Shown here: one piece after another, positions 18,025-61,661 of the stretch | How positions within the stretch are numbered: the stretch's first letter is position 1 | Layout: the number at the start of each line of letters is the position of its first letter | From: Candidatus Limihabitans stercoravium | GTDB taxonomy: Bacteria > Bacillota > Clostridia > Christensenellales > CAG-314 | DNA length: 64,000 nucleotides | Assembly (NCBI GenBank): GCA_018715495.1 | Contig: DVLO01000022.1 | Coordinates: 13,172 to 77,171, forward strand | Direction of reading: 5' to 3' | Position numbers and translations under genes: made by a program | Notes under the pieces: model-generated | Database searches by the model: none | Seen by the model: the letters and a program-made list of their open reading frames with translations, nothing else | What the model was told of the DNA's origin: nothing

Positions 18025-18031
18025 ATTTTGT

Positions 18032-18066
18032 AAGATGTCAGGTCTTGTACTTGACATCTTTTTTTA
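18032..18066 (+). terminator. Rho-independent terminator ending the comM...aspS-rseC unit
   Basis: AAGATGTCA (18032-18040) pairs with TGACATCTT (18052-18060). A T-run follows. Confidence 0.8.
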
Positions 18067-18190
18067 TTGTTGCGGCGAAAAAACCGATGTTTTGTAAACA
18101 AATGACAGCAATGTGTTACTTTAAAATTTTTTTTAGTAATTTTTTTTGTTAAAATACGATAAAATTTACTTAAAAATTCCTACAATTTAT

Positions 18191-18219
18191 TTGACTTAAA
18201 AAATGCTTGGTGCTATTAT
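18191..18219 (+). promoter_or_regulatory. Putative sigma-A promoter of the Rrf2-iscS-iscU operon
   Basis: TTGACT (18191-18196), 17-nt spacer, extended -10 TGcTATTAT (18211-18219). An A/T-rich UP-like region lies upstream. Confidence 0.55.
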
Positions 18220-18242
18220 ATTCCTAGTAAATTAGTAGGAAT
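18220..18242 (+). promoter_or_regulatory. Candidate Rrf2 operator (23-nt near-perfect palindrome at the predicted transcription start)
   Basis: ATTCCTAGTAA-A-TTAGTAGGAAT, 10 of 11 positions symmetric, directly abutting the -10 element. Confidence 0.45.
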
Positions 18243-18249
18243 TGCAAAA

Positions 18250-18648
18250 ATGAAGATTTCATCTAAAGCCAGGTACGGTCTGTACGCCGTTACGGAACTT
18301 GCACGCAACCACGGAAAGAGTATTTCAGCAGTGGAACTTGCGGAAAGAACAGGCGTCACAGAGAAATACCTTGAACAAATTTTGTCAATACTCAAAAAGA
18401 ACAACATTGTCACGGCAACACGTGGTGCTGCAGGCGGTTACACCCTGTCCGACAGTCCTGAAAATATATCTGTCGGCGCAGTCATCAGGTCGCTGGAAAA
18501 CAACCTTGAAATTGTAGGTTGTATCAATGGTGGCTGCGGTAAGATGTGCGGGTGCACACAGCGTTCTCTGTGGGAAAAACTGTACGACTACATCAACGAT
18601 TACCTGGACAAAATCAATCTCAGACAACTTGCGGAGGAAAATATATGA
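18250..18648 (+). CDS. Rrf2-family transcriptional regulator (IscR/CymR-like)
   Basis: MKISSKARYGLYAVTELA and a winged HTH. C-terminal Cys cluster CINGGCGKMCGC. Confidence 0.85.
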   Translation: MKISSKARYGLYAVTELARNHGKSISAVELAERTGVTEKYLEQILSILKKNNIVTATRGAAGGYTLSDSPENISVGAVIRSLENNLEIVGCINGGCGKMCGCTQRSLWEKLYDYINDYLDKINLRQLAEENI

Positions 18649-33297: not shown

Positions 33298-33556
33298 GCC
33301 CGTTCCTGAAAGAATGTGCGTTGCCTGCCGACAGATGAAGCCCAAGTCACAGCTGATACGAATTGTCCGTGACAAGGCAAGCGGTACTGTATCAATAGAT
33401 ACTACCGGCAAGCAAAACGGCAGAGGTTGTTACCTTTGCAAAAACAAAGAATGTATTAAAAAGTTTTGTAAAATCAAAAATTTTGAAAAAGTGTTGGGTT
33501 TCAACATAGAAGGCGAAATTCTTGCACAGTTGGAGGAATCCGTTGAACAAGATTGA
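33287..33556 (+). CDS. ylxR: YlxR (DUF448) RNA-binding protein
   Basis: PERMCVACRQMKPKSQLIRIV ... GRGCYLC is the hallmark motif. I chose ATG 33287 within the tracked GTG ORF. Confidence 0.85.
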   Translation: MNNKPVPERMCVACRQMKPKSQLIRIVRDKASGTVSIDTTGKQNGRGCYLCKNKECIKKFCKIKNFEKVLGFNIEGEILAQLEESVEQD

Positions 33557-33818
33557 TTCTTACATTGGCTTCAGCCTGAAAAACGGTACTGCAGTAATTG
33601 GTCTTGACAAGATAGAAGTGTGCAGAAAAAGAATTTACCTGATTTTGTACAGTCAGGAACTTAAAGAAAATTCGTTGAAAAAACTTACCAAATACGCTCA
33701 ACAGAGAAACTGTCCAATGATGGTTTACGATTTGTCTTTTTTAAATCGTGGTTGCAAAGCAATTGGTTTGTGCGACGCTAATTTGGCTAATGCCGCTATA
33801 AATGTATACAAGGGTTGA
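33543..33818 (+). CDS. ylxQ: L7Ae-family RNA-binding protein YlxQ
   Basis: Conserved slot between ylxR and inf[18 protein letters not shown] is L7Ae-like. TTG 33543 has a GGAGGA RBS 5 nt upstream. The tracked TTG 33522 is an alternative start. Confidence 0.7.
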
Positions 33819-36836: not shown

Positions 36837-37770
36837 ACAGTGCTACGAAGTACTGAAAAGTGCCAATACTGTAGCGATTTTTGCCCACACCAGACCTGAC
36901 GGTGACACAGTGGGGGCATGCGTCGGTTTGCGCTTTTTACTGGAAAAAATGGGTAAAACCTGTCATATGTTCTGCGATACGGCTTTGGGTAATTCGTTCA
37001 AACGGTTTCCTGAGGCTGTTTTTGCCGATTCGATCCCAACCGATGTCAAATTTGATTTGTATGTCGCTGTTGACTGCGGCGACTTACTCAGGACCGGTAT
37101 ATTTGCCACTCAGTTTGACCGATTTAACAACACAATGGTCATTGACCATCATTGTGGTGAACCCTACGCCAAGTATAACTGCCTGATGCCGTATGCAAGC
37201 ACGTGCGAAATGGTGCTGGATTTATACGACATTGCAGGTATTGTTCCTGACAATGTTCCAGCTACCTACTTATATTTGGGACTGTGCACCGATACTGGGA
37301 ACTTTTCTAATTCAGCAACGGATCAGCACGCATTTTTAGCTGCTGCCAAACTTGTGGGAGCGGGCGCAGATATACAGAAAATATCGTTGGACTTTTTCCG
37401 TAATACAACATTTGCCGAAAACAAACTTCTTGCTGTAGCACTTAAAAACATGCGCAGTTACTTTGATGGAAAGTTGATTCTCACGTACGTATTGCGCAGC
37501 GATCTTGAGCAATTGGGGCTAGCTGATTCATCCACGGCAGGTTTCGTGCAGTATGCAATAAACTGCGAAACGGCGAAGATGGGCGTTTCACTTGTTGAAC
37601 ATGCAAATAATGTTTTTAAGGTGAGTACACGTGGTAAAGAATTTGATGTTCGCAGTATTTGTACTGCATTTGGTGGTGGCGGACATCTTTATGCTTCCGG
37701 GTGTATGATAAGCGGATTTTTGGAAGACGTCATAGAAAAAATTGTTCGAGAGGCGTCCTTTACTATATGA
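36808..37770 (+). CDS. nrnA: DHH/DHHA1 phosphoesterase (NrnA-type oligoribonuclease / pAp phosphatase)
   Basis: HTRPDGDTVGA, DCGD, IDHH and GGGGHLYASG motifs. Confidence 0.8.
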   Translation: MKYCQKTTIKQCYEVLKSANTVAIFAHTRPDGDTVGACVGLRFLLEKMGKTCHMFCDTALGNSFKRFPEAVFADSIPTDVKFDLYVAVDCGDLLRTGIFATQFDRFNNTMVIDHHCGEPYAKYNCLMPYASTCEMVLDLYDIAGIVPDNVPATYLYLGLCTDTGNFSNSATDQHAFLAAAKLVGAGADIQKISLDFFRNTTFAENKLLAVALKNMRSYFDGKLILTYVLRSDLEQLGLADSSTAGFVQYAINCETAKMGVSLVEHANNVFKVSTRGKEFDVRSICTAFGGGGHLYASGCMISGFLEDVIEKIVREASFTI

Positions 37771-38621
37771 ATGGATTTGTAAATCTAATCAAACCTGTGG
37801 GCGCAACCGCAAGCGATATGGTTGTTTGCCTGAAGAAAATATACTCAATTAAAAAGGTGGGACACATGGGTACGCTGGATCCGGGAGCGGCAGGGGTACT
37901 TCCTGTTGCCGTGGGTAAAGCAACGTGTTTGTTCGATTATCTTACGGCAAAGCGTAAGACATATCGTGCGTGGTTTACCTTTGGTAAAACTACAGATACG
38001 CTTGACTCTTACGGAGTTGTAACGGGTCGATCGGATTTACCTGAGCGCAGTGCAGTTGTCGGCGCTTTACCGCAGTTTGTCGGAGAGATTGTGCAAGTTC
38101 CGCCAATGTATTCGGCAATCAATGTCAATGGCCAGCGCGCCTATGACCTGGCACGACAGGGACAAACGGTAGAACTCAAAAGTCGTACTGTAAATGTTTA
38201 CCGATTTGAACTGGTGCGGACTGAAGGCGAAGCTACCTACGTTTTTGATATAGAATGCGGTGGTGGTACTTACATTCGTTCGCTGTGCCGTGACCTTGCT
38301 GAAAAACTTGGTTGCGTTGCCTATATGTCGGCATTGATACGCACGTCCTCAGGGACATTCGACTTGTCGAATGCTGTTACAATCGATCAGGTCAGGGAAA
38401 GACCGATGGATTGTCTGTTGTCTGTTGACTTTGCAATAGGCGATGTCGGAAGTTACGTTTTTTCTGGTACGTTGTATGATAAATTGAACAACGGCGTAAA
38501 ACTAAAATGTAATTTTACCGGTTACAAAAAGATATATTGTAACGACATTTTGTTCGGACTGGGCAGATGTGTAGATGGAAAACTACAACTTGATTACTAC
38601 TTGAAAGATGCAAACAATTGA
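37767..38621 (+). CDS. truB: tRNA pseudouridine55 synthase TruB
   Basis: GFVNLIKPVGATASDMV and HMGTLDPGAAGVLPV (catalytic Asp). ATG 37767 overlaps the nrnA stop. The tracked 37659 extension lies inside nrnA. Confidence 0.93.
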   Translation: MNGFVNLIKPVGATASDMVVCLKKIYSIKKVGHMGTLDPGAAGVLPVAVGKATCLFDYLTAKRKTYRAWFTFGKTTDTLDSYGVVTGRSDLPERSAVVGALPQFVGEIVQVPPMYSAINVNGQRAYDLARQGQTVELKSRTVNVYRFELVRTEGEATYVFDIECGGGTYIRSLCRDLAEKLGCVAYMSALIRTSSGTFDLSNAVTIDQVRERPMDCLLSVDFAIGDVGSYVFSGTLYDKLNNGVKLKCNFTGYKKIYCNDILFGLGRCVDGKLQLDYYLKDANN

Positions 38622-49491: not shown

Positions 49492-49688
49492 AACTTGAAG
49501 AAAATATAACTAAACTTACACAACTTGCTGAAAAAATGGAAAGTCAGGATATTTCGGTGCAGGACGCCTTGAAAAGTTACGAACAAGGTATTCGCCTTGC
49601 CGAAGAGTGTCTTAAAGAAATAAACGGCTACAAGGGCAAGCTGATTGAACTCAAAACACAGATGGACGAATTGAACAATGACAACTGA
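49488..49688 (+). CDS. xseB: Exodeoxyribonuclease VII small subunit
   Basis: 66-aa helical protein (LEE...L..YEQGIRLAEEC). Overlaps the xseA stop. Confidence 0.88.
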   Translation: MKLEENITKLTQLAEKMESQDISVQDALKSYEQGIRLAEECLKEINGYKGKLIELKTQMDELNNDN

Positions 49689-50469
49689 ATTTGACATTGA
49701 CAAACTGATATACACCTACTTTATGCCCTCCGATGACAAGGTGAGTCAGGCGATGGTGTACTGTCTGGGTAGCGGTGGTAAGCGTATAAGGCCCAATCTG
49801 TTGCTGAAGACCGCAGCTAATTTGGGGTGCGTGGATGACAACATCTGTCGTCTTGCAGTAGCTTTGGAGTGTATTCACACCTATTCGCTGGTGCATGATG
49901 ATTTGCCGTGTATGGACAATGACGATTTCCGTCGGGGAAAGCCAACTTGTCACAAACAGTTTGGTGAGGCAACGGCTGTATTGTGCGGAGACGCACTGTT
50001 AAATCTTGCAATGGAAATCGTTTCGGGTGGAAGTGCTACCGACAATTATATGAAGTGTATCAACATGCTGTTTACAAACAGCGGTTACAGTGGAATGATA
50101 CGTGGTCAGACGCTTGACCTCAATGGAAGCGACAACAGTGACGGTCTTATGGAAATATCGTTGTGCAAGACTGCCAAGATGATAATCTCAGCCATTGCCA
50201 TACCCGCAGTTTACGCTGGTCTTCCCGCCGATGAGGTGGAAAAATACAAGCAAATCGGGCAATATATAGGTATAGCTTATCAGGTTGCAGACGATCTTCT
50301 TGATGAGAAAAGTGGTGAAAATTCCTTTGTGTCTGTATTGGGTCATGACGAAACGGTACAGTTGCTCAATTGCCTGTCCAACGAAACGCTGTGCTTACTT
50401 GACAAACTTAATGTAGGTCAGGAGCACATTCGACAACTTGTGACATTCAATCTGACACGAAAGTTCTAA
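49678..50469 (+). CDS. ispA: (2E,6E)-farnesyl diphosphate synthase / polyprenyl synthetase
   Basis: First Asp-rich motif LVHDDLPCMDNDDFRRGKPT and second motif VADDLLD. Confidence 0.9.
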   Translation: MTTEFDIDKLIYTYFMPSDDKVSQAMVYCLGSGGKRIRPNLLLKTAANLGCVDDNICRLAVALECIHTYSLVHDDLPCMDNDDFRRGKPTCHKQFGEATAVLCGDALLNLAMEIVSGGSATDNYMKCINMLFTNSGYSGMIRGQTLDLNGSDNSDGLMEISLCKTAKMIISAIAIPAVYAGLPADEVEKYKQIGQYIGIAYQVADDLLDEKSGENSFVSVLGHDETVQLLNCLSNETLCLLDKLNVGQEHIRQLVTFNLTRKF

Positions 50470-50490: not shown

Positions 50491-50519
50491 CAAATGACTG
50501 CAGTCATTTGCATTTTTTT
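50491..50519 (+). terminator. Terminator-like hairpin after ispA
   Basis: CAAATGACTG (50491-50500) and CAGTCATTTG (50501-50510) form a perfect inverted repeat. CATTTTTTT follows. It overlaps the -35 of the downstream promoter. Confidence 0.6.
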
Positions 50520-50536
50520 CAGCAATGTGCTATAAT
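50508..50536 (+). promoter_or_regulatory. Putative sigma-A promoter driving the large ncRNA
   Basis: TTGCAT (50508-50513), 17-nt spacer, extended -10 TGcTATAAT (50528-50536). Confidence 0.6.
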
Positions 50537-50542
50537 ATTATA

Positions 50543-51166
50543 CGTGGGTAACCACACAACTTAATAAAAAAATACTGGTGGTGCAGTATTCTAGTCAGAA
50601 ACAGGTGCGAAGAAGACGGGGTTAAAATATCGTCGAAGGGCATATCGATGAAGTTTCTTGTGCTGGCTTCCGTTGCCCAAACGGGGGCTTGTGCTGGAAG
50701 TTAAGATTGCTGGGTAAGACGTAATGGCATACGTGTGATCCCCAACAGTCGTGGAGACTCTACAGGGTGGTTGTACGCTACGGAGCGCAACTACTCTCTG
50801 AGATTAAACCTGCTATGCGGCATCAAAGCTGTGTACAGAGTAGCTTGTTTTGAGTGAAGTTTTGGGAGTAATGAACGGCGTTTGCTTTGTTGGCCGACAA
50901 CAACCGTCCGAATGCTTTATGAAATGAATTTTGCAAAAGAAACTAAGCGTAGTTGTTTCTGCAAAGGAAATCTTCTAGACTGCAATTCAGGTAAGTCGGG
51001 GATTATAGTACGGTCTGAGTGGCGATTCAGTTAAGCGTGTGGCGACACCGCTTGTGCGAAATGAAAAGGAAACTGCTCTTTCGGCGACGAGGAGTTTTTG
51101 CACGGGAAATCCTACTGAACCTATGCCGTAAGGTTTATCCGACTTATCACCACCTTATTTTTTTTA
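50543..51166 (+). ncRNA. ole: OLE (ornate, large, extremophilic) RNA candidate; boundaries approximate
   Basis: The ispA-oapA interval has no tracked + strand ORF of 60 aa or more. It has its own promoter and many hairpins, including GNRA loops (GTGG-GTAA-CCAC 50544-50555; GTG-GCGA-CAC 51039-51048). Long-range complementarities: GGTGGTG 50577-50583 with CACCACC 51148-51154; TAAGTCGG 50992-50999 with CCGACTTA 51139-51146; CTACTCT 50791-50797 with AGAGTAG 50837-50843. The synteny folD-xseA-xseB-ispA-[RNA]-TM protein-dxs...argR-recN is the published OLE context. Confidence 0.75.
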
Positions 51167-51184
51167 CATTTTACAGGAGTTTAT

Positions 51185-51823
51185 ATGAATAAGCAGGGCA
51201 GCGACCCCACATCGGACAATGGTAAAAATCAAGAAATAAACAGTACTGACTTGACATCCAAGAGCAAGGCGCAGGACAAGACAAATCCCAAAAAGAAGAA
51301 GAAAAAGAATCTTTGGCCGTTGAAGGCTTGCTTGATTACTCTTGTTTTGTCTTTTGCGGTCAATACTGCGTCGGAACTTGCGCTTACGGGCGCACACATT
51401 GCAATTGCAATTGTAATTACGCTGGTAATTGTAATGATTGGCGTGTTTTTCGATATAATAGGTACTGCAAGTACTTCTTGTGACATTCAGCCTTTTCTTG
51501 CTATGGCGTCAAGAAAGGTGAAGGGAGCTAAAACTGCCGTCAAATTTGCCAAAAACAGCGACGTTGTATCTTCCGTCTGCAATGACATCATAGGTGACAT
51601 ATGTGGTGTCGTATCAGGCGTGTGCGGTGCGGCAATTGTAGGCAACGTTACAGGTAACGTTACAGGCAACTTTTCATTCTGGTTCAGCGTGTTGACTTAC
51701 GCAATTGTTTCTACGCTGACAATCACGGGAAAGGCTTTGGGTAAGAATTACGCCGTAAACAACGCTAACAAAATTGTATTTAACACTGCTAAGTTTATCA
51801 GTTTGTTTAGTAAAGAGGGTTAA
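51185..51823 (+). CDS. oapA: OLE-associated protein A candidate (small polytopic membrane protein)
   Basis: 212 aa. Basic, disordered N-terminus with a KKKKKK run, then predicted TM helices with repeated DIIG motifs (FFDIIGTAS; CNDIIGDICG). Sits immediately 3' of the ncRNA and 5' of dxs. AGGAG RBS lies 5 nt upstream. Confidence 0.7.
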   Translation: MNKQGSDPTSDNGKNQEINSTDLTSKSKAQDKTNPKKKKKKNLWPLKACLITLVLSFAVNTASELALTGAHIAIAIVITLVIVMIGVFFDIIGTASTSCDIQPFLAMASRKVKGAKTAVKFAKNSDVVSSVCNDIIGDICGVVSGVCGAAIVGNVTGNVTGNFSFWFSVLTYAIVSTLTITGKALGKNYAVNNANKIVFNTAKFISLFSKEG

Positions 51824-53607
51824 TGATTAGAGACATCAACAGCCCCGACGATCTCAAAAAATTGTCTGTAAAGCAACTTCCTAAACTGTGTGAGGAAATC
51901 AGACAACTGCTTGTTGACACGGTGCTTTCAACGGGCGGACATCTTGCTTCCAATCTTGGAGTGGTGGAACTTACTGTTGCATTGCATTACGTTTTCGATT
52001 CGTCGGATAAAATCGTGTGGGATGTAGGGCATCAGAGCTACGTTCACAAAATACTTACGGGAAGGTTGTCCCGTTTCGCAACGCTCAGACAGAAAGACGG
52101 TCTGGGCGGTTTTCCCCGTATGGACGAAAGCATGACTGACTCTTTCAACACAGGTCATGCCAGCACGGCTATTTCTGCTGCGCTGGGAATTGCAAAAGCA
52201 CGTGATTTAAAGGGAGAAGACTACAATGTAGTGGCAGTAGTCGGAGATGGTGCATTGACCGGTGGGCTTGCTTACGAAGGGCTTAACAATGTCGGAAACA
52301 CTAAGATGTTGATTGTGGTAAACGACAACAACATGTCAATCGCTGAAAACGTAGGTTCGGCCACTCTCAACATGAGTAAAATCCGTGTAGGATCTTACGA
52401 CAGAAACAAGGAGCGTTTAAAAAAGTTTTTGTCTAAAATCCCCCTTCTGGGAAAACCTACATACAAATTCCTTCATTGGTGCAAGCGTCGTGTCAAGATG
52501 TCTTACGGAGAGAACAGTTACTTCGATAAGTTTGATATAAAGTACATCGGTGCAATTGACGGCAATGATGTAGGAGATTTGGTTTACTTCCTTACTAAAA
52601 TCAAAAACAATGTTACAAAACCAACTGTTTTACACGTGTTGACCAAGAAGGGCAAGGGTTACAAACCTGCAGAAGACGATCCCGAACAGTTCCATTCTGT
52701 TGGGAAAACAGGAGCGGTGCTTTCAAGCGAAACTGTAGGCGAAACTCTTTGTCAACTTGCGCAACACAACAACATATGTGCAATTACTGCAGCAATGCAG
52801 GATGCTGTGGGGCTGGGAGAAATGGCTAAGCAATTTCCCGACAGAGTATTCGATGTCGGTATTGCCGAAGAACACGCAGTTACATTTGCAGCGGGACTTG
52901 CCACCGGCGGTGTTAAACCGTATGTGGCAATTTACTCTACATTCTTGCAGCGCGCGTTTGACCAGATACAGCATGATGTATCTTTGCAGAATTTACCTGT
53001 CACATTCCTGCTTGACCGCAGTGGACTTGTCGGCAGCGACGGTGCGACTCATCAGGGAATTTACGACTTGAGTTATCTGACGTGTATTCCCAACATGACA
53101 GTCTGGACTCCTGCAAGTTACAGTCAGCTAAAATCCATGATTGAGAAATCTGTTGAATTTCCAACGCCGTTGGCAATCAGATACGCCAAAACTCTGTCTT
53201 CGGACAAACTGCCTTTTGACGGTAATTGGAATGTTCTTCTTGATGGTAAGCATATCCATTTACTTGCAGTAGGCAACAATATGCTTGAAGTGGCAATAAG
53301 AGTCAAGCAAGACTACCTTCTAAAAGCTCAGGTAGTCAATGTTACTACAGTCAAGCCGCTAGACAGCGTCTATCTTGAAACAATCAATGACGGTGATGTC
53401 GTTGTAGCCTTGGAAGAAAATGTCCGCCAGGGCGGTTTCGGAAGTCTTGTAAAGGATTATTTTGCCGATAGAAATGTAAAGGTGCTAGGTTTTGCTGTTG
53501 GTGATTCGGTTGCTCAAGGCACAGTTGATGAGCAGATGAAGATGTGCGGACTTGATGCAGAAAGCGTTGGAAGATATCTGTTGCAGACATTAAAAAATGA
53601 AATTTAA
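51823..53607 (+). CDS. dxs: 1-deoxy-D-xylulose-5-phosphate synthase
   Basis: GGHLASNLGVVELTVALH, GHASTAISAALG, thiamine-PP motif GDGALTGGLAYEGLNN, and a transketolase-like C-terminus. The start overlaps the oapA stop (TAATG). Confidence 0.96.
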   Translation: MIRDINSPDDLKKLSVKQLPKLCEEIRQLLVDTVLSTGGHLASNLGVVELTVALHYVFDSSDKIVWDVGHQSYVHKILTGRLSRFATLRQKDGLGGFPRMDESMTDSFNTGHASTAISAALGIAKARDLKGEDYNVVAVVGDGALTGGLAYEGLNNVGNTKMLIVVNDNNMSIAENVGSATLNMSKIRVGSYDRNKERLKKFLSKIPLLGKPTYKFLHWCKRRVKMSYGENSYFDKFDIKYIGAIDGNDVGDLVYFLTKIKNNVTKPTVLHVLTKKGKGYKPAEDDPEQFHSVGKTGAVLSSETVGETLCQLAQHNNICAITAAMQDAVGLGEMAKQFPDRVFDVGIAEEHAVTFAAGLATGGVKPYVAIYSTFLQRAFDQIQHDVSLQNLPVTFLLDRSGLVGSDGATHQGIYDLSYLTCIPNMTVWTPASYSQLKSMIEKSVEFPTPLAIRYAKTLSSDKLPFDGNWNVLLDGKHIHLLAVGNNMLEVAIRVKQDYLLKAQVVNVTTVKPLDSVYLETINDGDVVVALEENVRQGGFGSLVKDYFADRNVKVLGFAVGDSVAQGTVDEQMKMCGLDAESVGRYLLQTLKNEI

Positions 53608-60947: not shown

Positions 60948-61661
60948 ATGTATATTATCGAACTTTTAAGGAACTTCGGCGACAGTTTCTGTCGTGAAGG
61001 TATACTCAACGTAATAGCTTTTATCATTGCACTTGTGTCGGCACTTGTACTGCACGAAGTTGCACACGGCGTTGTTGCAAAGTGGAACGGCGACGATACT
61101 GCCAAACTCATGGGCAGATTGTCACTTAACCCGATGAAACACTTCGACGCTGTGGGCTTGATCGTGATGTTGCTTGTCGGTTTCGGTTGGGCAAGGCCTG
61201 TACCTGTAAATCCCAACAATTTCAAGAACAAGCGCTGGGGCATGGTTTGGGTGTCAATTGCAGGCATTGTTACCAACTTGTTGGTAGCATTTGTTTTTGC
61301 GCTGTTTTATATGTTGTGGGTGACTTTTGCACCTGCTCCTCAAACAGAGGCGTTGTACTATCTCAACCACTTTATGACAATGTTGTTCAACCTGGTGGTT
61401 TCTATAAACATTTCATTTGCGTTGTTTAACATATTGCCATTGTTCCCTCTTGACGGTTACAGGTTTATTTCCTGCTTTGTGCCGCAAGAGAACAGATTTA
61501 TGGTGTTTATGAGGAGATACAGCCTTTACATATTGTTGTTCTTGTTGATTTGGGATTACTTCCCGATAATCGGTGGCTATTCGCCCCTCAGTCTGTACAT
61601 GACTTTCTGTGGAAATGGTATACTGCGAGGCTTTTTCGGGTTCTGGGGGTTGTTTTTCTGA
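60948..61661 (+). CDS. Site-2 protease family (M50) membrane metalloprotease
   Basis: HEVAHG zinc motif and NILPLFPLDG motif. Polytopic membrane protein. Confidence 0.8.
   Translation: MYIIELLRNFGDSFCREGILNVIAFIIALVSALVLHEVAHGVVAKWNGDDTAKLMGRLSLNPMKHFDAVGLIVMLLVGFGWARPVPVNPNNFKNKRWGMVWVSIAGIVTNLLVAFVFALFYMLWVTFAPAPQTEALYYLNHFMTMLFNLVVSINISFALFNILPLFPLDGYRFISCFVPQENRFMVFMRRYSLYILLFLLIWDYFPIIGGYSPLSLYMTFCGNGILRGFFGFWGLFF

Follow-up and report, generated by a model that had tools for sequence, protein, structure and literature searches.

OLE RNA is among the largest and best conserved bacterial noncoding RNAs of unknown biochemical function, and a recent proposal casts it as a membrane-spanning dimer. 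Its hosts have been described as Bacillota that are anaerobes or extremophiles. The full-length type (Rfam family RF01071) has been studied in Halalkalibacterium halodurans, and cryo-electron microscopy (cryo-EM) structures come from Clostridium acetobutylicum and C. botulinum. Two reduced forms have also been described: variant 1, with shortened P7 to P9 helices and often without the binding site for the protein OapB, is common in TANB77, and variant 2, without P7 and P8, is common in RF39 (Fernando and Breaker 2024). Here, we analyzed a 64,000-nucleotide (nt) stretch of Candidatus Limihabitans stercoravium (assembly GCA_018715495.1, contig DVLO01000022.1, positions 13,172 to 77,171 of the forward strand), which we call the window. 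The long gap between ispA and the next gene in this window carries an OLE RNA with a conserved fold. Its gene is linked to oapA, which encodes the OLE partner protein OapA, the binding and dimerization motifs that we checked are kept, and the RNA is under purifying selection. It is an additional canonical member of the known OLE class, from an uncultured gut-type Clostridia species.

Like OLE, the ROOL, GOLLD, and raiA motif RNAs are noncoding, large, and highly structured, and what they do biochemically is unknown. The cage-forming ROOL and GOLLD RNAs are associated with phages and, unlike OLE, have no dedicated membrane-protein partner. OLE, ROOL, and GOLLD each assemble into homo-oligomers (PMC12286853). 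An Rfam scan of the window gave no match to ROOL, GOLLD, or the raiA motif, and OLE was the sole Rfam match above the gathering threshold.

About 2,800 genomic representatives of OLE are on record (PMC11332333), and with thousands already catalogued, a further canonical one adds little. The practical value lies in annotation: the name oapA can now be assigned to the gene downstream, and on public metagenome contigs with the same locus, the 716 nt have been left blank by gene callers. Incremental gains are evidence from covariation for helices P1 and P3, what appears to be a conserved dedicated promoter, and a clade-specific leader hairpin; the P1/P3 covariation and the promoter details serve construct design and the mapping of transcript ends.

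A full-length OLE RNA lies between ispA and oapA

When the whole window was scanned against Rfam 15 with cmscan, positions 50562 to 51169 of the plus strand (608 nt) matched RF01071 with 450.4 bits (E value, 5.4e-129), compared with a gathering score of 50 bits. The match is untruncated and spans model positions 1 to 616 of 616. An initial annotation of this DNA had proposed an OLE RNA here and had set a covariance-model search beforehand as the test, which the proposal passed over the full model; the length of about 600 nt that it took to fit OLE also agrees with the 608 nt matched.

From the end of ispA at 50469 to the start of the next gene at 51185, the gap measures 715 to 716 nt. No other intergenic stretch in the window is as large, the runners-up being about 270 nt. 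The initial annotation had singled out this gap for its size and had described it as richer in GC than other intergenic DNA, packed with helices, and free of plus-strand open reading frames (ORFs) of at least 60 amino acids (aa), and all four descriptions were correct. The G+C content of the OLE region is 45.1%, compared with 32.8% for 13 other intergenic segments pooled and 43.3% for the whole window. The plus strand folds with a minimum free energy (MFE) of -204.6 kcal/mol (z = -4.75 relative to dinucleotide shuffles, none of 20 being as good), while the z score of the minus strand is only -1.84.

One possibility is that the gap encodes small proteins rather than an RNA, since it does contain three short plus-strand ORFs of 40, 50, and 57 aa (50735 to 50857, 50882 to 51034, and 51019 to 51192). 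The first two frames, however, are broken in 12 of the 12 nearest relatives (1 to 5 stops), most of which also lack the start codon and differ in length by numbers that are mostly not multiples of three. In the third frame, the GTG and the length are retained, but 8 of the 12 have stops. Moreover, substitutions are compensatory, as expected for base pairing, and not codon-like, and the full-length covariance-model match explains the conservation. Since the 12 nearest relatives do not conserve these ORFs, we rejected this reading, and we regard its probability as negligible.

The window RNA belongs to the full-length type rather than to variant 1 or 2, since P7 (45 nt), P8 (29 nt), and P9 (97 nt) have the lengths of the Rfam consensus; the OapB site in P13, which variant 1 often lacks, is intact as well. 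What it has in common with the variants is its host, an uncultured gut-associated member of the Bacillota known from metagenome assemblies. With the full-length OLEs, it shares all of P4 to P14, the kink-turn (k-turn) strands, the GNRA loop and bulge of P13, the GCGA loop of P14.1, an A-rich L4, complementary L5.1 and L6.1 loops, and a GGCC loop on P9. It differs from them in its leader of about 33 nt, which places a small hairpin before P1, and in lacking the hairpin at model positions 424 to 437. The initial annotation had called this a divergent representative. That description has to be dropped because the score of 450 bits sits in the middle of the range seen among 19 relatives (363 to 478 bits), and the elements for OapB, OapC/bS21, and dimerization are kept.

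The locus, too, is that of the full-length type, with ispA upstream and oapA immediately downstream, followed by dxs, argR, and recN. Pfam and NCBIfam assignments gave the order asp23/yqhY-nusB-folD-xseA-xseB-ispA-OLE-oapA-dxs-argR-recN, in agreement with the order from folD to recN that had been read from the ORFs in the initial annotation. The block is a conserved Bacillota cluster in which ole-oapA is inserted between ispA and dxs. We consider it close to certain that the gap is a functional ole gene.

The OLE-oapA pair is conserved across uncultured Clostridia and Bacilli

A profile scan with OapA across the GTDB species representatives yielded 80 loci, whose hosts are uncultured Clostridia, Christensenellaceae, Oscillospiraceae, or "Bacilli" known from metagenome-assembled genomes (MAGs), mostly from animal gut. 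Among these representatives, the best protein identity to the window OapA is 60 to 65%, and the window OLE is at most 83% identical to their OLEs. A full-length Rfam OLE lies directly upstream of oapA in 19 of the first 20 loci (363 to 478 bits), and an nhmmer profile placed OLE immediately upstream of the oapA homologue in 77 of the 80. Two of the other three (L046 and L065) have less than 100 nt of sequence upstream of oapA. With so little upstream sequence in these two, L015 is the sole real exception: in this 6.4-kb locus from an uncultured Bacilli bacterium (CANQIS010000020.1), neither Rfam (E value of 0.001 or less) nor nhmmer found an OLE. Its OapA homologue (L015:2959-3561) is 47% identical over 162 aligned residues and has an intact DVIGD, and the 3 kb upstream are filled by ORFs. 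Either ole resides elsewhere in that genome, or the lineage keeps oapA without an adjacent RNA.

We aligned 68 full-length OLEs, including that of the window, with MAFFT (alignment A3), and the pair counts and the counts over 68 sequences given below come from this alignment. It contains 130 invariant columns, about 21% of the nucleotides, and some 80 more that are conserved in at least 90% of the sequences; for the OLE class, about one-quarter of the nucleotides being very strongly conserved is expected. At the strain level, an OapA identical to that of the window occurs on contigs from four public samples. Samples with this species include ENA ERZ28614305 and ERZ27280528 (runs ERR4096640 and ERR4096641). 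In one such strain, L081, 76 of 6,639 bases are different from those of the window, with 75 of 5,924 in the flanks and 0 of 608 in the OLE. Were the OLE to change at the rate of its flanks, about 7.7 differences would be expected there (P of about 5e-4 by our own arithmetic). The sole strain-level substitution within the gap, at 50503, falls in the loop of a terminator-like hairpin ahead of the RNA.

Two kinds of OLE in this set depart from that of the window. The OLE at L024:2416-2946 (Bacilli bacterium RGIG2822) is 531 nt long and scores 276 bits, and its 5' half was missed by the nhmmer profile; it is probably a reduced variant of the type described by Fernando and Breaker (2024). The OLEs of an Oscillospiraceae/Oscillibacter/Dysosmobacter group (L070, L061, L069, L068, L067, L052, L050, L048, L058, L041, and L028) are expanded. 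They carry an extra GC-rich hairpin of about 20 to 23 nt after P5 (GGAAGCGCG...CGCGCTT; A3 columns 180 to 202) and have longer P7 and P8 arms. These expansions are lineage specific, and the window RNA is without them.

Covariation supports the closing helix and a P3 stem missing from the Rfam structure

Helix names below follow the text of later OLE papers, and P4 to P8 are taken from the cmscan alignment alone. The ends of the RNA are joined by P1, in which GGUGGUG (50577 to 50583) pairs with CACCACC (51148 to 51154). This helix is missing from the Rfam structure line and comes from the covariation in A3: it is 96% paired, and six of its seven pairs show compensatory changes, as in GACGGUG/CACCGUC, GGCGGCG/CGCCGCC, and UUAAGACA/UGUCUUAA. 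The initial annotation had already drawn GGTGGTG/CACCACC as the helix that closes the whole RNA. It had also drawn the long-range helix TAAGTCGG/CCGACTTA (50992 to 50999 with 51139 to 51146; 98% paired, with eight of eight pairs covarying), which lies within an 11-bp helix closing the 3' domain in the Rfam structure and in A3 (50990 to 51000 with 51138 to 51148).

P3 and P3.1 are likewise missing from the Rfam structure line. The 5' strand (50596 to 50609; CAGAAACA, then UGCG) pairs with the 3' strand (50948 to 50961; CGUA, then UGUUUCUG) in two segments, 50596 to 50603 with 50954 to 50961 and 50606 to 50609 with 50948 to 50951, and these are made up of standard pairs except for one G-U, with 12 of the former. 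In A3, the helix is 76% paired, compared with 58% in shuffles, and its covariation is 0.53, compared with 0.23; none of 500 shuffles scored as high. P3 and P3.1 typically total 12 bp, and the stem has been proposed to cross the membrane (PMC12265935). The length of the window stem agrees with the approximately 12 bp quoted for this proposed membrane-crossing stem.

P3 is flanked by two CUAG palindromes, both of which are invariant in the 68 sequences. The first lies within UCUAGUC (50590 to 50596), which is unchanged throughout. The second lies in the conserved CUAGACUG that follows the hairpin AAG-GAAAU-CUU (hairpin and motif together, 50964 to 50982, from cmscan and A3). Since invariant bases give no covariation, P2 is left with two possible registers around these palindromes. 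OapA sites have been assigned to palindromes in or near P2 and P4a (PMC12265935), and by analogy, UCUAGUC may correspond to the published OapA palindrome near P2.

Within the domain enclosed by P3, the cmscan alignment places P4 at 50615 to 50634, with the A-rich loop GUUAAAAU; P5/P5.1 at 50654 to 50700, with the loop GCCCA; P6/P6.1 at 50705 to 50750, with the loop AAUGGCAU; P7 at 50758 to 50802; P8 at 50810 to 50838; and the long P9 arm at 50847 to 50943. The P6.1 loop has an invariant AA and an invariant GGCAU, separated by a nearly invariant U. The GGCA of this loop is complementary to UGCC of the P5.1 loop region, in which U50674 is the base that closes the stem. This L5.1/L6.1 complementarity is the published kissing contact (PMC12265935). 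In the cryo-EM structures, the A-A bridge of L4 is a dimerization contact, and a GGCC kissing loop forms dimer bridge B3 (PMC12286853). The tip of the window P9 holds the palindrome GGCC at 50892 to 50895, and TGGCC is kept there in most of the 68 sequences. Thus, the four dimer contacts of the cryo-EM structures, namely the A-rich L4, L5.1/L6.1 (counted twice), and the GGCC of P9, all appear to be represented in the window RNA.

The elements for protein partners can be recognized as well. The initial annotation had named the conserved core and the OapB and OapC elements as points to check; here, they were read from the alignment to the Rfam consensus against the literature. The k-turn bound by OapC has been located in PMC9723947 and PMC12286853. 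J4a/5 (50635 to 50653) carries the conserved AUCGAUGAAG, which matches the consensus and forms one k-turn strand, and J6/7 (50751 to 50757) reads GUGGAGA, a consensus match that is the second strand in the cryo-EM model (PMC12286853). In both, most positions are invariant or nearly so. The k-turn strands for OapC/bS21 around P5 (J4a/5 with J6/7 or J5/6) therefore appear to be present. OapB binding needs a GNRA loop and a single-nucleotide bulge (PMC7936274). The hairpin at 51033 to 51053, AAGCG-U-GUG-GCGA-CAC-CGCUU, corresponds to P13 in cmscan and A3 and by homology would be the OapB-binding element, with both the GNRA tetraloop and the single bulged U apparently intact. The initial annotation had drawn this hairpin with its GNRA loop, and it proved to be well conserved (87% paired, with eight of eight pairs covarying). 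P14/P14.1 (51054 to 51103) has a second GNRA loop, GCGA at 51084 to 51087; this P14.1 loop is a weak second OapB site (PMC7936274).

The remaining pairings of the initial annotation fared less well. Two of the eight that it had drawn by hand are not part of the conserved fold. The 5' hairpin AATACTG/CAGTATT (50571 to 50577 with 50584 to 50590) uses G50577 and is 49% paired in the 68 sequences, no better than shuffles. CTACTCT/AGAGTAG shows zero covariation and clashes with P7 of the model and with the conserved single-stranded J8/9: positions 50791 to 50797 are in P7, where CTACTCT is paired locally, 50837 to 50838 close P8, and 50839 to 50843 form the conserved single strand between P8 and P9. 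All of the sequence strings that the annotation quoted were found where it had placed them, with one correction, since the loop of AATACTG/CAGTATT is the 6-nt GTGGTG (50578 to 50583) and not GGTGGTG. Its hairpin TTGTTG-GCCGA-CAACAA fits the tip of P9 in the Rfam model, while the corresponding MAFFT columns are only 35 to 54% paired in a poorly aligned region. Because the P9 tip and the leader hairpin vary in length, MAFFT column counts are uninformative for both.

The small variable hairpin at model positions 424 to 437 is the sole element of the model missing from the window RNA. In the window and its nearest relatives, this 4-bp hairpin is replaced by the 6-nt AAUUCA (50984 to 50989), and in L017, L027, and L056, insertions of 15 to 25 nt are found at the same place, which marks it as a site of variable expansion.

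The downstream gene encodes OapA

The gene downstream of the RNA (51185 to 51823, plus strand) encodes a protein of 212 aa. It has an AGGAG ribosome-binding site at 51175 to 51179 and starts 16 nt after the Rfam match. OapA proteins are recognized by a DxxxD motif, four transmembrane (TM) helices, a basic cluster, and a distant CNNM-like domain (PMC11332333; PMC12265935). In the window protein, the motif is DIIGD (D134 to D138), and both aspartates are invariant in 26 homologues. Ahead of the first hydrophobic helix is a lysine-rich KKKKKK tract (residues 35 to 41), and residues 109 to 123 form another basic segment, SRKVKGAKTAVKFAK. An AlphaFold2 (AF2) model of low confidence (predicted local distance difference test [pLDDT], 59) has four long hydrophobic helices at residues 44 to 67, 72 to 97, 128 to 159, and 164 to 192.

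The Pfam CNNM domain (PF01595) scored 27.0 bits, just below the cutoff of 28.4, and OapA proteins have been reported to cluster just below this cutoff (PMC11332333). Foldseek ranked CNNM/CorB/CorC structures first to fifth in the PDB (7M1U, 7M1T, and 7CFF; E values of 8e-3 to 9e-2; probabilities of 0.94 to 1.0), and there is a clear break after these CorB/CorC matches, the sixth rank having an E value of 1.6. Given the low confidence of the AF2 model, we used this search solely for the separation of the CorB/CorC matches from the rest. 7M1U is also the reported top structural match for H. halodurans OapA (PMC11332333). A PDB sequence search with the window protein gave nothing meaningful.

These data support the assignment of the downstream protein as OapA, related to the CNNM/CorB membrane domain. 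The initial annotation had taken the small membrane protein for OapA, and the published features of the family bear this out (PMC11332333). The TM domain is thus like that of the MpfA/CorB/CNNM transporters (PF01595, 27 bits; 7M1U, 7M1T, and 7CFF). In contrast to those transporters, OapA is only 212 aa long, has no CBS pair or CorC domain, and possesses the DxxxD motif and a fourth TM helix.

Two side observations were made on proteins of the window. At about residues 146 to 156 (51620 to 51650), the window OapA reads GNVTGNVTG, and relatives that are 91 to 96% identical are four residues shorter (208 versus 212 aa); the difference is apparently the trace of a recent 12-nt tandem duplication in the loop that joins helices three and four. 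Elsewhere in the window, a 98-aa ORF between ylxR and infB (33522 to 33818, plus strand) occupies the position of ylxQ, which in Bacillus encodes an L7Ae-family k-turn binder. This ORF had no Pfam family, and a PDB sequence search with it gave a chance-level match only.

Sequences at the predicted transcript ends suggest a dedicated promoter and a clade-specific leader

A consensus scan found a terminator-like hairpin (CAAATGACTGCAGTCATTTG) with a T-run after ispA (50491 to 50520, plus strand), which may end the upstream transcript. Overlapping this hairpin is a promoter-like site (50508 to 50536, plus strand), with a -35 element TTGCAT at 50508 to 50513, a 17-nt spacer, and an extended -10 element TGcTATAAT at 50528 to 50536, from which transcription is predicted to start near 50543. 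In 55 of the 68 OLE loci, the 100 nt upstream of P1 contain a motif of this kind, TTGnnn-N13-16-TGnTAnnnT, compared with 2% of background 100-nt windows. The window OLE would thus have its own promoter-like site after a terminator-like site, in contrast to the cluster of H. halodurans, which is polycistronic (PMC12265935).

The distance from the end of the -10 box to P1 is 6 to 14 nt in most lineages and 38 to 41 nt in the clade of the window, where a leader of about 33 nt precedes P1. In the window, per-sequence folding gives a clade-specific hairpin outside the Rfam model, GTGG-GTAA-CCAC (50544 to 50555, plus strand), followed by a conserved CAACUUAAUAAAA linker. Since the leader columns of the alignment are uninformative, this hairpin was tested on individually folded sequences. 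In nine of the 12 nearest relatives, the same 22-nt slot holds a hairpin that is unrelated in sequence and has a z score of -2.5 or below relative to shuffles. The hairpin drawn in the initial annotation is therefore matched by others in the same slot among relatives, while its sequence is not shared and it lies outside the model. It may act as a 5' stabilizer.

Directly 3' of P1 is a U-run, UUAUUUUUUUU (51155 to 51165, plus strand), and the MFE fold pairs it with a 5' A-run (50564 to 50572). Together with the A-run, the U-run may extend P1; it may also, or instead, signal termination. Of the 68 loci, 26 have a T-rich tail after P1, among them almost all members of the nearest clade. In Oscillospiraceae OLEs, P1 is lengthened by GC-rich pairs instead (GCUAAGC with GCUUAGC). 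The promoter, the start of transcription, and the 3' end are thus predictions from sequence.

This arrangement raises the question as to whether the RNA is a cis-acting leader or attenuator for oapA-dxs, in which P1 ahead of the U-run would terminate transcription and folding would set the expression of the isoprenoid pathway. P1 is followed directly by UUAUUUUUUUU, oapA starts about 20 nt later, and the 1-base overlap of oapA and dxs suggests that the two are cotranscribed; the T-rich tail in 26 loci also fits. However, the U-run is missing in the other 42 of the 68 loci, for example, in the Oscillospiraceae group with its GC-rich P1 extension, and in the clade of the window it can equally pair with the 5' A-run. 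Moreover, we know of no attenuator that needs 600 nt with 21% of its positions invariant, and the OLE of H. halodurans is abundant, acts in trans, and depends on OapA for its function (PMC12265935). We therefore consider an attenuator very improbable and favor a trans-acting OLE RNA.

A related idea, to which we give little weight though somewhat more than to the attenuator, is that the OLE of this clade is an autonomous transcription unit, with a 5' hairpin that is conserved in structure though not in sequence and could stabilize the RNA, and a P1/U-run that would serve as a folding-dependent terminator or attenuator. The 5'-terminal hairpin and the U-run after P1 are features not described for the OLE model systems. 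If this idea were true, OLE folding would set the level of oapA-dxs mRNA and would itself be tied to partner stoichiometry and to the supply of isoprenoid precursors.

A membrane ribonucleoprotein is the most probable role

By homology with the described OLEs, we propose the following mechanism. ole would be transcribed on the plus strand, probably from its own extended -10 promoter with a start near 50543, to give an RNA of about 610 to 625 nt whose ends are paired by P1, probably extended by the 5' A-run and the 3' U-run. The RNA adopts the canonical fold of two domains, P3 to P9 (domain 1) and P1, P2, and P10 to P15 (domain 2), and as in H. halodurans and Clostridium, contacts of the A-rich L4, kissing of L5.1 with L6.1, and the GGCC of P9 may join two copies into a homodimer. 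OapA would bind the RNA and take it to the membrane, and the RNA may in turn recruit OapB through the GNRA loop and bulge of P13, as well as OapC and bS21 through the k-turn around P5/P6. The resulting ribonucleoprotein (RNP) would most likely supply the regulatory module that OapA lacks, tune the transport of divalent cations (Mg2+), and couple it to cold, short-chain alcohols, excess Mg2+, and poor carbon sources. The OLE particle with OapA, OapB, OapC, and bS21 is needed under those stresses (PMC12265935, PMC11332333). Across genomes, mpfA anticorrelates with ole, and the RNA may supply a missing regulatory function; that OLE RNA replaces the domains missing from OapA is a hypothesis from the literature (PMC12265935, PMC11332333). 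For the window RNA, dimerization, membrane localization, protein partners, and physiological role are thus presumed from the literature by analogy. Regulation of an OapA ion transporter by OLE is a tentative proposal, to which we give slightly less than even odds.

The size of OLE, its 21% or so of invariant nucleotides, and its ornate conserved fold are also typical of ribozymes, and its discoverers have long held the hypothesis of a ribozyme (PMC11332333; PMC12265935). In that case, OLE RNA would chiefly catalyze an as yet unknown reaction and would not mainly be a regulator or scaffold of a transporter. Against this, the OLE literature cited here reports no catalytic activity nearly twenty years after the first description, and a 2025 perspective notes that the requirements of crossing a membrane could be enough to account for how large and conserved the RNA is. 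We consider a ribozyme unlikely, though still a competing account of the mechanism, and retain the transporter-linked RNP.

Several points weigh against the reading of the locus as an ole gene with a canonical fold and an OapA-linked RNP. The AF2 model of OapA is of low confidence, at a pLDDT of 59. Neither oapB (KOW/ybzG) nor oapC (L7Ae/YbxF) was found among ten small ORFs scanned within the 64-kb window. One promoter-like site was found in the region, and 1.3 were expected from shuffles; with a single site at chance level, the weight of the promoter comes solely from its conservation across loci. Expression of the RNA is predicted from the DNA, and the mechanism is borrowed from work on the model organisms, where what OLE does biochemically is itself a matter of hypothesis. 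With these points taken into account, we put the probability of the reading as a whole at roughly 0.95.

Neighboring genes and other intergenic regions

The upstream neighbor of the RNA, ispA (49678 to 50469, plus strand), encodes a farnesyl-diphosphate synthase (Pfam polyprenyl_synt, 157 bits; NCBIfam FPPsyn, 219 bits). dxs (51823 to 53607, plus strand; TIGR00204, 610.8 bits) is the gene whose start overlaps the oapA stop codon by 1 base. In the window, argR directly follows dxs; in the clusters of H. halodurans and B. subtilis, we take genes for a tlyA-type methyltransferase and an NAD kinase to lie between the two. A gene of the SpoIIIAC/AD family was found in the ORF scan a few kilobases upstream of the OLE cluster.

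The next-largest intergenic stretches of the window, 18025 to 18298 and 61277 to 61549, are about 270 nt each, with G+C contents of 29% and 39%, and have zero Rfam matches above the gathering threshold. Two apparently larger gaps in a greedy ORF map were rejected as coding: the 837-nt gap at 37771 to 38607 is truB (37769 to 38621), and the 1.7-kb gap at 19.8 to 21.5 kb holds iscU, ruvX, and a DUF1292-like gene. Both false gaps arose because long overlapping or antisense ORFs had hidden the coding genes.

A last observation concerns host labels in the comparative set. A MAG of Candidatus Fimimonas merdipullorum (L008) has a full-length OLE (444 bits) adjoining oapA that is typical of Bacillota, while the NCBI taxonomy puts Candidatus Fimimonas (taxid 2840648) under Myxococcota/Myxococcaceae. 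One further OapA homologue is assigned to "Corallococcus sp." in the NCBI taxonomy and to "Bacillota bacterium" in nr. Such taxonomic mislabels could explain some of the reported non-Bacillota OLE matches.

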